Part shown: positions 3,001-9,000 of the stretch, piece after piece
How positions within the stretch are numbered: the first letter of the stretch is position 1
How the letters are laid out: every line of letters begins with the position of its first letter
Virus record (IMG/VR): IMGVR_UViG_2537561932_000024
Location: 1-29,493 of that record
DNA length: 29,493 nucleotides
Source: a virus
Taxonomy: Duplodnaviria; Heunggongvirae; Uroviricota; Caudoviricetes
Reading direction: 5' to 3' (one strand)
Program-made: the position numbers

Positions 3001-6000
3001 GAGACCATAGAATATTCAGGTTTCACGGGTTTTTGTTTTCTGAGTTTCTTTTCCCATTCTGCCCATTCTTGCGATGGGTATTCTGGGCGCTCGCTTTGTA
3101 GCCATGTGTCACCGCCAACAAGACATGGGTTGGTACTTTTTACCATGAAGCTAACTGCACTGTCATATCTGTCAGTGATATTCCCGTCCGCGTCAATTCC
3201 GCATATATCGCCTGGCTTAATGTCTCCACAGCCTTCTGATTTGTAGAAATATTCAGCGTAATCAGCTCCGGAAGAATTAACTGTGCCAGCGCAGTTTATG
3301 CTCCTGTCCGTTGCTGATGACTTTCCTACGAACATAACAGCGTCTGATGCGTTCGCACCTCCTGAGGCTTGTTGCCGTATGACGACCCCAGCTGCTCCAT
3401 TGGGACCAAACTGTGCGGCGATTTCGTTCACCCCCTTTCGGTTTGTTTGTGTGATGCTACCGGCAGGGTCAATGATAAGTACGTTGGTTTCCTCTCCAAC
3501 ACCATCAACCTGTGACGCCAGCACAAATGCCGCAGCGTTGGGGGTTAGAATTTTGATACCGGACTGATCGTGGTCTGAGAAGAACCCATATGATGTAGCA
3601 CCCCATGAGCGATATGAATATGTTGAACCAGGCCAAACATCATGTGCTTTGCCAAACTTACCTACAGCCTGGTATGCGCTATCAACTATCTCATCAGGAT
3701 TAAATGCATTGTTGTTGATAGCTTTATAAACCTGACTATCAGAACCTGTTCCGTCTTTATATAGGTTAAGCATCACCTCCATACCAACTGCAGACGTTGC
3801 AGCTGCATCTTCAGGAACTGTTACAACAGTATTATTCCCCCATACACGATATACAGGAGAGATATAAAGTGTTCCTGATGGAGTGCTCTGAGTTCCTGAC
3901 GTTTTTTCATACCATCCATCAACGGTGATGCTTGACGAATTAAACCCCCTAATAAGACCAAACCATGTTTTCGAAGATCCTATAACCACCGCGGTCATAT
4001 TTATCCTGACCTTAGCCGGATCAATGGTAATACTAGATGCTCCTGTTGTGCTAAAAATAGCTCCAGTTAGCGTGTACAATGGCGGTAATGCAGTATTTTC
4101 AAAATATGTAGCAGCAGTATCTGTACTGCCGTATTGGGCCAGCGATTGACCGGTTCCGGCGCCTAGAATGCCGGTAAAATGCTCAGCATCACGAGTCGCA
4201 GCCACAGCCGTTAAAACACATGCATCTTCAAAAACACCAAATGGTTGTTTTTGATGCTTTATTCCTCCATATCGGAACTCATAACCATCAGAAAAACTTC
4301 TATCAGATCTGTTATATGAACCAGGTATTAGCCCTGGAATTAGGAAATCAGCATTTTTCTCAATGATGTAATGCCCATCTGATATCAGCCTCGTCATATC
4401 AGCAGAAGATGCTGCTTCAATGCCTTCTTTTACTGGCAGCCAAAATCCTGATGGCTCTTCATCGCTGGTTATGGTGTGCGGTATGGTTGCCGTATATCTA
4501 TAAACGGTTGCGCTACCAAGATGCAATACAACATCGCATGGGTTATTTATTGTTACTCCTGGTTTGAAATATCCAATTAAATTATATCCAGGAAGTTTAC
4601 TGTATTTATCCCAAAGATTTAATAAGTTTATATCAAGGTAGGAAAACTTTGATGATGGATCATACTTCAGCACATTAGGAAAATAGAACTGCTTAGCACC
4701 ATATGCATCATATACAGCCATGGAATGGCCTTGCACAGTTACGAATTTGGCAATCTGTCCGTTATATACCGGATAACCAGCAGCGTTAATGATGATTGGT
4801 TGAGAAACAGGAACATGAGAACCATCTTCGTTTTCTACATAAACCTGAATCTGGTTTTCAGGATTTACCGGGTCAGTGTCAATTTTACCGATATAAATTT
4901 TGCCATTGGCTACGGCTTTAAAAGAACGCGCCATAGTGAAGAGTTGCGAAGGCATGCTTACTACAACATTGGCTGTAATGTCTGTCATTTAATTTGCTCC
5001 AGATACAAGGAATCGCCGAAGCATGGCTACGGTGAATTTTTGGCATAAAAAAACCCAGCCGAAGCTGGGTCGTTGCGTTGGTTATCTGTCAGTAGTTATG
5101 TACTGAAGGAGGTAATTCTTTATTCTTAAGTCTCATCCATGCGGAAAGATTCGTTGGTCCGTCTGGCTCATTAATATCAACATCTCGTGTATGGTTGATT
5201 AAAACATCTCTCGCCATATCGATAATACGGGAGAACTCATAACCGCAGTCATGACATCTGCCGGAATAGTTCGATTGAATTTGTTTTAGCGCCGGATACA
5301 GTTCGCGGAATAATGCCTGTGAGCGGTTGGCATAATCCCATAACCATACAAGGCTGTTTGCTTCTTTTGCAGAAAGCTCGTCGGTTTTCTTCTCTTGTTT
5401 GCCGATGAACTCGCCTTCAAGCACTACCCTGTGGATGTACTCTACGGCCAGCGGGATTTGTTCAATTGAAAGTTCATCAATACTGTCAATACCAAAACGC
5501 TGATGAACCATATTGTATGCATCGTCATAGCGAAGTCCTTTCTTTCCTACCAGCATGTTTACTGCATCGCGTAGCGGTGTTCTTTCCTCAACAGTGGTTT
5601 TCTTTCCTTTTACATACTCGCCATGTTTGCGAATTGAAGGCAGAACTTCTGCTGTTACCCACTTGCGGAATTTGTGCGGGACTGAACCTTTATTGACAGC
5701 ATCGCGGCAGCGCAGAACCAATGTATACATACCTGATTCGCTAACAATGCTTAGATTCTGCTCACCACCAAGGGTGTAACTTAAAGTTACTCCCTTTTCA
5801 TCGTCATCAAGTGCAGTAAGCGCCTTGCGTGAGTTAGTCAGAGTTAAAGCATCACAAACATCTTTTGCCACAAACCACGGCTCACCGCACTTGTTGATGA
5901 CGCGGATTTCACTGTCGCCGAATTTGAAGATGGTGAAATCGTTTTGTGCCTTTGCTATACTTTTCATGTCAATATTTCCCGATCAGATTTGTTGATACCG

Positions 6001-9000
6001 AAGCCCTGACTGTTCCCGCAGTTGGGGCTTCAACGTTTTTCCACTTCATTTTGAATTTGCTTAAGTAGCATATTTGTCTCGTCAAGCCTCTTGTTAATAC
6101 GGTCAAGGCTTTCTACTAAATCGTTATGTGCATGTGATACCTCGTAATTTGAGACTGATTTCTTTTCCTCTATCGTCTTTGTCAATCGTTCCCCTGATTG
6201 ATACATATTGATTAACGATGTAAAAATCACGAGCAAGCAAACTACAATGATTGCGCCAGACAAAAATTGTAAAGAACGATCAAGCAATGACACCTTCATA
6301 CCGTTATCCCCTCTCTCTTCAGGCTGTCCAGCACCCGCTTGTAAATCTCAGAGTTAACAGATCGCCCGTTCTCTTCAGCTACCTTGCGCACCAAATCCAA
6401 CACTTCTTTAGGCCACCGCAAATTGAACTGCGGCATTTTGCTCATTCCTTTCATGTTCACCTCACAATATAGGTCCACCGTGGACCTATTGAGAATATAG
6501 TAGAGTGCTTCTATCATGTCAATACACTAACTTGGAGTGATGGCATGGCTAGAGATGATCCGCACTTTAACTTCCGTATGCCTTTGGAAGTAAGAGAAAA
6601 ATTGAAATTAAGAGCCGAGGCTAACGGAAGGTCAATGAACTCTGAGTTATTACAAATCGTTCAGGATGCTCTCTCAAAGCCATCACCGATTGCAGGCTAT
6701 CGCAACGAAGCTGAACGCTTGGCTGATGAACATTCGGATATCGTAAAAAATATGGTATTCGAAACTTTAAAAAAACTTTATGGAAAAGAAAAGAATGAGT
6801 AATAAAGAGCTTGTTAAAAAATCAAATAACTGTGTCGATGCATATGCTGACTCATTTGGATACTCTTCATTTGGTGACGGTTCCCAGCGATTAGGTTCAA
6901 TTTCTTTTTTTCATAATGTAACTGAATGGCCTGTTGATGAAAGCGGTGATGTTGAAAACATAAAGTACAATATTGCCACCATTAGAATGCCTGAAGAATT
7001 GATGCTTAAATTGGCGGACTTCATTCGCGACCAACATTATAAGGCTAAAACAAACGAGTCGTAATCAATGATGAAACACGATTATTACGAAGCTCCAAAT
7101 CTAACTGAAAAGCTTGAACAAGCGGAAAAATCATCATCTTTGTACACAAATCCAATTTCTCAGTCATCAGGAATGTCTGGCATGAATATGGGCATGCTAC
7201 AATCAAGTGGTGGTGGAGCTGGGAGTAACAACATGCTTGAGGCTAGGGTTGCACGGTTAGAGGCAGATGTTGAAAACATTAAGACCAATCTATCTGAGGC
7301 AAGGTCTGACATCTCTCGTTTGCGTGATATCTCAGCTGATACATCCAGAGATGTTGCGGTGGTCCTGCAAAAAATAGTAGATGTAGACGAAAAATTATCA
7401 AAAAAACCGAGTAAGAGCGAAGTCCAGACATTGATCTCTACTGCAGTAAACAAGCAAATACTATGGACCATAGGGACTGGATTTGCTCTTTTAGGGATAG
7501 CTAAATATATATTTTAGCTCACCTCATCAGCTATCTTCTTGTTCCATTCACTCAGCGCCACTGCTAGGAAAACTAAGGAGGTTGGTGTGAAGAAAAAATT
7601 TTTAAACGTTGCAAAGTGCGCAATTTTTATATTTTTTATGACCTTTTACGGATTTAGTGCCGGAGAAGGTTTCGATCGTGATGCCAATGCATTCAGTTTC
7701 TTTTGTCTGTCTATAGTGGTCATAATTGTATGGGTGGAATTAAAGCAAACATTGTTTCATGTGCTAGGGAAATAACCATCCATGGCATTTAGTCACTGCT
7801 GTGTTGCCTCAGTGGCAAGCAGCGGTCTGATGGCATTTGCAGCGTTACTTAATGCTCTTTCATAGGCTGGCGTTCCTGCTTTGGTGTTTGCCAGACGTAA
7901 GAGCGCATTCCTGGCCATAGGGCTTTCATAACCCCTCGACATAAGGCCAATCCCTGTTTCCCCAGCCAATAGCGCGCCTCCGGTTTTTAGGTTACCAATA
8001 ACCCTTACCAAAGGCGCGAGTGTCATGCCAGTCTTCGTCACAACATTAGCCTCAGATGCTCTTTTGGTAGCATCGAGAATAGATAACATCCCCTCTATCT
8101 CTTTTCCGTTCTTCCCACCAAATACAGTTTTAAACACCTGACCATTTGCTTGTTTTTGCAGCTTGCCAAGCTCGGTCATCATTTTCTGAGGGCTGTCACC
8201 TACCTTGTCAGCTATTTTGCTGATATATGCCGCCCTTAGCATGTCTTTACCTTTTTGATCGAGTTTCCCGTACAATCGAGCTATATCTGACCCATATTGT
8301 CCATACACAATGGTATTTACAGCCTCGGGAGTTAAATCTCCTTTGTTTAGAACGTTTTTAAGGCGCGTTTGAGTTGCATGTGTTGCCATTTTTGCATAAT
8401 CAGCTTTTCCCGCTCTCCATGCTGAAGCATCTTTTGGGCTAAGTCCTTTCGCTATAGATTTACTAAGGCTATTGGTTAGCGAGTTGTAGACCCTGTTGAT
8501 CATTGTTTGCGACATTGATGGCAGAACTGTACGATCGCCTTTTACGTCAATGCGGAACTGAGTTCTCAGCTTATCAAGTAACTCAAAGGCATCATCTCCA
8601 TTTGTTATCTCCTGAATGGCATTCTTATAATCATTAAGCGCAGAAATGGTCTGGGTGTCAGAAACACCTTTAAGTTTCCCAAGTTCGTTTACTGCTCCGT
8701 CGATGGCTCTTATGGCGCCACTTGTATCAACTGGCTTTCCAACCATTCTTCCTGACAGGTTGTTTAGTTTTGACTTGGCTAACGATTTTTCCCTTGCAAC
8801 GCCTGACTTTAGACTATCAACGACTACAGATGGATCGTAGTCGCCGTATTTTTCGGTGAAGCGATTAACAAGCTTGGTTCTGGCATCCTGCTGTGCGGCT
8901 CTCATTGGTCCAGTACCAGCTATGACTCCTTCTGAGTAACCCTGCAGTTGATTGCCAAGTTTTGTTTTTGGAGGAACTACATCCGATGTCATAACTGGTA

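Follow-up and report, generated by a model that had tools for sequence, protein, structure and literature searches.

Does a P22-like prophage that carries an extra gene between its arc and ant genes still encode the antisense RNA sar, together with the terminator that ends it? The question is raised by IMG/VR record IMGVR_UViG_2537561932_000024, of which positions 1 to 29,493 (one strand, 29,493 nucleotides (nt); hereafter the window) were analysed. A sequence-only reading of the window had noticed, on the plus strand and antisense to the antirepressor gene ant, a -10-like TATACT followed by a strong hairpin and TTTTT, and had proposed that this is the layout of P22 sar, kept at the very edge of an inserted gene of 89 codons (here orf89). 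In P22, sar blocks the translation of Ant by base-pairing (Liao et al. 1987 and Wu et al. 1987, Genes Dev 1:197 and 1:204, both as cited in PMC2629481). Furthermore, P22 sar reads have been detected by small-RNA sequencing, in a study that also describes the RNA as blocking Ant translation (PMC13397905).

Our results indicate that the element is very probably the sar of the P22-type immI region in an Escherichia coli P22-like prophage. Nothing sets it apart from other members of this known RNA family: the copy is intact and its context is the familiar one. Finding the textbook P22 sar/ant antisense control complete, though not annotated, in an E. coli prophage carries little weight alone; a modestly useful by-product is a gene slot between arc and sar whose junctions can be placed to the base. 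The slot flags small, uncharacterised, early-expressed phage proteins, including a look-alike of the ClpX zinc finger.

Identification and Fold of the sar RNA

Of the matches that the Rfam models gave across the whole window, sar (RF00262) was the only one that was not a tRNA. It lies at 5969-6035 on the plus strand, reaches 65.0 bits where the gathering threshold is 43 (E 1.7e-11) and covers positions 1-68 of the 68 in the model, with no truncation and no non-canonical pair flagged. We then compared the locus with P22 (BK000583, in which Psar, sar and the terminator are annotated), epsilon34 (EU570103, sar annotated) and UPF_BP1. The promoter, the 5′ end and the terminator hairpin (hairpin II) are collinear with those of P22, which bears out the likeness to P22 sar proposed earlier. 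As in P22, the RNA is antisense to the ant leader and its 5′ end adjoins the ant start codon: G5968, the base after that codon, corresponds to the annotated 5′ end of P22 sar, from which we infer that the transcript starts there. Its 3′ end is expected within the T-run at 6036-6040. A sar RNA would be expected as a discrete transcript of ~68-69 nt, and the predicted total length here matches that of P22.

The segment 5968-6041 folds into two hairpins with a predicted stability of -29.6 kcal/mol, compared with -29.5 kcal/mol for P22 sar. The mean of shuffled sequences was -13.4 kcal/mol (z = -6.0), and 0 of 200 dinucleotide shuffles folded as well. The minimum free energy structure is also the centroid and makes up 68% of the ensemble. 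Hairpin II (GAAGCCCTGACTGT-TCCC-GCAGTTGGGGCTTC; -21.9 kcal/mol alone) is identical to its P22 counterpart at 31 of 32 positions, and the sole difference is a loop base shared with epsilon34 (loop C, UUCC), whose Psar/sar layout is also the same. The tail behind it reads AACGUUUUU here and AACUUUA in P22. The hairpin followed by TTTTT that had been noticed at the outset is a 14-bp stem-loop, with AACG standing between the stem and the Ts.

In contrast to hairpin II, stem-loop I has diverged: it is identical to P22 at only 12 of 29 positions (17 differ), yet it keeps a stem of 6-7 bp, with 7 bp here in a register shifted by one base and nearly the same energy (-6.2 vs -6.1 kcal/mol in P22). Is this stem maintained by selection for pairing? 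We collected 48 distinct homologous sequences from viral contigs and E. coli genomes, which comprise four stem-I sequence types that all fold alike, and aligned them with MAFFT and a covariance model of our own. Four of the seven stem-I pairs were changed on both sides. The observed covariation was reached by 0 of 500 shuffles, and controls with slid partners lay far below it. Seventeen P22-type rows were scored as not paired at 4 of the 7 pairs. Their pairs are shifted by one base, and the pairing of this type is seen both by single-sequence folding and in the Rfam alignment. The covariation count therefore understates the pairing, because the alignment missed the shifted register.

The Predicted Psar Promoter

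The TATACT pointed out in the initial reading lies at 5956-5961 and is accompanied by a TG extension (5953-5954) and a -35-like GTGAAA (5933-5938). This predicted promoter sits within the first ant codons, on the opposite strand, and reads away from ant. The stretch 5933-5961 matches the annotated P22 Psar column for column, with the extended -10 TTGCTATACT invariant, and the layout also agrees with the Psar annotated in epsilon34.

Furthermore, the extended -10, TTGCTAnnCT, is retained in at least five ant alleles whose coding 5′ ends are otherwise unrelated. Since it overlaps ant codons 3-5 (5953-5967 and the homologous loci) and is kept, the antisense promoter constrains the N-terminus of Ant to S-(I/L/V)-A at residues 3-5; indeed, all of the N-termini read M-x-S-(I/L/V)-A. 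Such retention would be hard to explain otherwise than by selection on a plus-strand promoter. At the level of sequence, the features that define sar are all present: the family score, the position, Psar and the two stem-loops.

Evidence for and against Plus-Strand Transcription

Several points weigh against this assignment. The -35 element of Psar is weak, and the AACG that puts 4 nt between stem and T-run is atypical for intrinsic terminators; the spacing in the P22 terminator (AAC-UUU) is the same. The invariance of hairpin II is uninformative in the covariation sample, because the homologues were picked by an exact match to it. The prophage, moreover, may be defective, in which case sar regulation might currently be idle. 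Generic scans are not decisive alone (8 promoters found vs 4.7 expected; 5 terminators vs 1.9).

Could hairpin II be kept for a reason other than ending an RNA? We scanned IMG/VR for exact matches to hairpin II and pooled the matches listed with other loci; the resulting frequencies are not population estimates. The flanks of the hairpin are mosaic, with four stem-I/ant types on one side and at least 11 downstream classes on the other that reassort freely, and the occurrence of orf89 with three of the stem-I types (A, B and C) points to recombination within or beside the conserved hairpin. The hairpin itself is near-invariant in sequence, beyond what structure alone would require. It is conceivable, albeit improbable, that it is kept mainly as a homology patch at the DNA level (a mosaic boundary between ant and the arc/cargo modules) or as a structure of the sense ant mRNA, the plus-strand RNA being incidental or lost. 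A homology patch, however, is compatible with sar function and not an alternative to it, and the invariance partly reflects the collection of loci by an exact pattern; in a distant relative on another contig (L025, 4268-4344), the architecture is the same but the sequence of hairpin II differs. Furthermore, ant genes with unrelated coding sequences share the extended -10, and a T-run comes after the stem in every downstream class among the matches listed. Neither feature would be required unless the plus strand were transcribed and terminated.

An even smaller chance attaches to a decaying immI remnant without a current regulatory role in a defective prophage, as an IS21-like element with partial genes at 28930-29493 (annotation of the near-identical prophage) and an acyltransferase gene that appears frame-shifted relative to E. 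coli strain 503440 might suggest. Against such decay, none of the four genes (mnt, arc, orf89 and ant) is shortened, and the identity of the operators and promoters to P22 is 99%. Nor is there damage to Psar, to either stem or to the T-run, and the module is at least 99% conserved in 14 E. coli genomes and occurs in the isolated phages EC.P3 and S.Kent 1-2-1.

A bidirectional terminator, acting on Pant/Plate transcripts as well, was considered and rejected: read on the minus strand, the sequence behind the hairpin is GGUAUCAACAAAUC and lacks a U-run, so that it does not resemble a terminator of the sense transcript. Read-through into ant would therefore be preserved.

A second, divergent sar-like element was seen on the viral contig L025 (4268-4344, plus strand; 29 bits with our own model). 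It has an extended -10 (TGCTACAAT), the CAT of a Bro-N/Ant-like gene and a 5′ hairpin; its hairpin II is different and GC-rich (GAGGCCCGG...CCGGGCTTC), its tail is ACTATTTTTA, and a ribbon-helix-helix-like open reading frame (ORF) of 57 amino acids comes next. Because this element keeps the architecture with another hairpin II sequence, the sar family appears to extend past the near-invariant hairpin II.

Pairing with the ant Leader and Proposed Mechanism

The RNA is encoded antisense to the ant leader, across its ribosome-binding site and inside the mnt-arc-ant immI region. The UUUCCC of loop I is the complement of the ant Shine-Dalgarno sequence, which is GGGA here and GGAG, one base further upstream (-14 to -11), in P22. 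The gap between the upstream stop codon and the ant ATG is 62 nt, compared with 68 nt in P22, and the extra gene therefore leaves sar and its target arranged as they are in P22.

By homology with P22, a constitutive extended -10 promoter in the first ant codons would drive a plus-strand RNA of ~70 nt that starts at G5968 and ends in the T-run after hairpin II. This RNA would pair with the leader stretch of the mRNA that separates ant from the ORF upstream, as far as the last base ahead of the AUG; the complementarity would be perfect, since the RNA is cis-encoded. Loop I would lie opposite the GGGA, and pairing would keep ribosomes from their binding site and so repress the synthesis of Ant, a role that we infer from P22. 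Two transcriptional layers would be added to this control, both at Pant: one is Arc, and the other, in the lysogen, is Mnt.

Among the lambdoid phages, the cis-antisense RNAs lambda/P22 OOP, PaQ antisense and P22 sas are similar in being short, constitutive, terminator-ended antisense RNAs on overlapping mRNAs. Their targets and sequences are different; sar acts on a ribosome-binding site in a polycistronic leader.

The orf89 Gene and Its Junctions

How does the extra gene meet the sar terminator? The one local departure from P22 concerns the gene that runs up to the terminator, which is arc in P22 and orf89 here; in epsilon34, too, arc directly abuts sar. The divergence from P22 begins just after ...GGGGCTTCAAC (6034/6035) and ends at ~6307, within the last arc codons, so that ~273 nt here replace the 16 nt that encode the end of arc in P22. 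The new segment codes for orf89, and the C-terminus of Arc is ...KREGITV compared with ...KKEGRIGA in P22. The orf89 ATG overlaps the arc stop codon (ATGA), and the final codons of arc supply the GAGGGG that serves orf89 as Shine-Dalgarno sequence. At the other end, the TGA stop (6030-6032) overlaps the last two bases of the sar stem, and the protein ends ...E-K-R-stop (E87, 6039-6041; K88, 6036-6038; R89, 6033-6035). The T-run does overlap the last orf89 codons, as had been remarked, through E87 and K88. The further proposal, that an insertion sits exactly at the edge of the sar terminator, holds in that the extra gene abuts the terminator when compared with P22; the direction of the event is not polarised. 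Because different small ORFs fill this place in many prophages, the difference may reflect a loss in P22 as well as a gain here.

The GC content of orf89 is 36%, compared with 48% for arc and 44% for ant; low GC is usual for acquired genes. An N-terminal transmembrane helix is predicted at residues 12-30 (mean hydropathy 2.79), and the C-terminal part is charged and helical-looking. The protein forms its own PHROG (phrog_27312), labelled as of unknown function. No Pfam, NCBIfam or PADLOC family was found, Pfam giving only a sub-threshold DUF1664, and a PHROG match to "bacteriocin immunity" (E 0.0027) was weak and not trusted. A search of 5.8 billion proteins yielded no more than 8 clusters, none of them below 84% identity, and tblastn against phages returned only EC.P3 and S.Kent 1-2-1. 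The gene is present in 14 of 5426 complete E. coli genomes and in EC.P3, and absent from P22, epsilon34 and UPF_BP1.

A classical moron is an inserted gene that is independently expressed from its own promoter and ends at its own terminator. Like morons, orf89 is present in some relatives and absent from others at the same position. However, the promoter scan found no promoter-like site upstream of it other than Pant, and there is no sense-direction terminator between orf89 and ant. Lacking a promoter and a terminator of its own, orf89 reads as an in-operon cassette and not as a classical moron. As a low-confidence guess, its product may be a small protein of the membrane that is expressed early, from Pant, along with Arc and Ant.

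A Cassette Slot between arc and sar

Other E. coli prophages have different small ORFs at the identical place between arc and sar. Right after ...GGGGCTTCA we found at least 16 exact downstream strings, which were grouped into the at least 11 downstream classes mentioned above: either arc follows directly (in four allelic forms) or the place is taken by orf57, orf60, orf63, orf67, orf73, orf74 or orf89. At least seven unrelated small ORFs thus occupy the slot. Among the matches listed, the base of the stem contributes, in every cargo class, a TCA that reads as the TGA stop codon on the other strand, and a run of 3-5 T follows within 2-3 nt; the start codon of the cargo overlaps the stop codon of arc. 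Each cargo ORF borrows its stop codon and final 2-3 codons from the tail of sar and would be coupled in translation to arc.

Did the T-run come with the inserted DNA? Three tail variants were found, AACTTT(T), AACGTTTT(T) and CTGTTTT(T), which give the C-terminal endings K/E-S, K-R and K-Q, and each of them is common to several cargo classes; the AACGTTTT(T) tail, for example, also occurs with the unrelated cargo orf57 (L037). These shared tails rule out that the T-run was brought in by inserted DNA. Because they are common to unrelated cargo classes, the T-run belongs with sar, and the mosaic junction falls immediately 3′ of it. The slot accounts for the survival of the sar terminator as genes are gained and lost.

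High flux in the "ant moron" region has already been documented (PMC2629481; PMC8022706), and the base-precise slot is an incremental addition to it. A slot with fixed junctions between arc and sar is not spelled out in the available portion of PMC2629481. We consider it possible, though rather doubtful, that hairpin II and the last arc codons are the two fixed anchors of a swappable immI cassette slot whose cargo consists of arc-coupled ORFs acting as early effectors. If the cargo were early Pant effectors under Arc/Mnt control, with roles in exclusion, host takeover or anti-defence, new small phage effectors could be mined easily from so compact a slot, and orf89 would then be a membrane-acting one.

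Other loci add to the picture of the slot. Several of the alternative cargos, found outside the window, are CxxC...CxxC zinc ribbons (L104, L055, L094, L089 and L100). The 60-amino-acid cargo orf60 (MNKEDGFKCSFCGKPQHEC...ICSGCVSLC...) matches the Pfam ClpX C4 zinc finger PF06689 with 42 bits against a cut-off of 27. In UPEC129 (L007), a gene for a ClpP-like protease directly follows mnt. The zinc-ribbon cargos and the ClpP-like neighbour may be a sign that phages interfere with ClpXP.

Lambdoid prophages of the O157:H7 type have the sar/ant unit among their tail genes, as in the O157-type E. coli strain FORC_044 (L008, 1536-1948). There, ~240 nt without an annotated gene separate the sar terminator from a shortened arc (111 nt), and the sequence after the hairpin is that of the orf67 cargo class. 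The ~240 nt may represent a small ORF that is unannotated or decayed.

The immI Region and the Prophage

The features of the region are collected in Table 1.

Table 1. Positions of the sar element and the surrounding immI features in the window.
Feature	Position	Strand	Description and basis
Intrinsic-terminator-like hairpin and T-run downstream of ant	5052-5071	-	Terminator scan; a terminator is also annotated there in P22 and epsilon34
ant, antirepressor, target of sar	5089-5967	-	292 amino acids; Bro-N and P22_AR_C (Pfam); PHROG anti-repressor Ant; RefSeq annotation of near-identical prophage
Psar	5933-5961	+	-35-like GTGAAA, 17-nt spacer, extended -10 TG-C-TATACT; promoter scan and P22 alignment
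sar antisense RNA	5968-6040	+	~69-73 nt; Rfam RF00262, fold, P22/epsilon34 annotation at the homologous place
sar stem-loop I	5968-5996	+	7-bp stem 5968-5974/5990-5996, loop with UUUCCC; fold and covariation
ant Shine-Dalgarno GGGA	5977-5980	-	-13 to -10 from the AUG; opposite sar loop I
sar hairpin II, predicted terminator stem-loop	6000-6031	+	14 bp (7 G-C), 4-nt loop UCCC
orf89, cargo gene between arc and sar	6030-6299	-	89 amino acids; phrog_27312
Terminator tail	6032-6041	+	AACGTTTTTC; AACG, then TTTTT at 6036-6040; mosaic junction to cargo DNA just 3′
arc, repressor	6296-6454	-	52 amino acids; Pfam Arc, 91.9 bits; P22 alignment
Divergent Pant/Pmnt control region	6471-6522	.	Positions transferred from BK000583; promoter scan 11/12 and 10/12
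Mnt operator	6471-6493	.	Transferred from BK000583
Arc operator	6497-6517	.	Transferred from BK000583
mnt, repressor	6545-6802	+	85 amino acids; Pfam Arc and Repressor_Mnt

The order of ant, arc and mnt and the P22-like Pant/Pmnt operators identify the locus as a P22-type immI region in inverted orientation, in line with what the sequence-only reading had assumed. As in P22, mnt, arc and the operators are present, and the block with Pant, Pmnt and the operators (6440-6560) is identical to P22 at 119 of 121 positions. The P22-like prophage in the window has E. coli as its host, unlike P22, whose host is Salmonella, and the segment 5700-6850 is 100% identical to E. coli strains 503440 and 503829. 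The RefSeq annotation of the 503440 prophage lists integrase, tailspike, ant, arc, mnt, ejection proteins, head, lysis, Q and nin genes, with no RNA feature at the sar site. A sar-like sequence is present in 849 of the 5426 complete E. coli genomes.

At the end of the early region (28930-29493), the annotation of the near-identical prophage shows that the IS21-family element includes istB and that partial genes accompany it. Because of this element and the truncated genes, the prophage may be disrupted and defective. The first part of the window (1-2400) is offset by one base relative to strain 503440 up to ~position 2300. The acyltransferase ORF beside the integrase gene has 298 amino acids (1492-2388), compared with 336 annotated in 503440 (1505-2515); this gap is likely a frameshift difference in an O-antigen-modifying gene.

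Downstream of mnt (6780-7517, plus strand) lie two ORFs of 89/94 and 149 amino acids, which belong to phrog_4231 and phrog_3556, both PHROGs of unknown function; neither had a match in Pfam, NCBIfam or PADLOC. The 149-amino-acid product has a hydrophobic C-terminal segment and a weak similarity to a "hemolysin" PHROG. Since the two ORFs occupy the place of P22 orf59a and sieA, they are candidate lysogen-expressed exclusion genes.

Amid the tail and ejection-protein genes, an ORF with a NUMOD4 domain is annotated in the near-identical prophage (12862-13395, minus strand); NUMOD4 is a domain of the kind seen in homing endonucleases. Finally, two adjoining tRNA genes (Thr and Asn, according to RefSeq) lie at 25199-25354 on the minus strand, between the Q antiterminator and holin genes.

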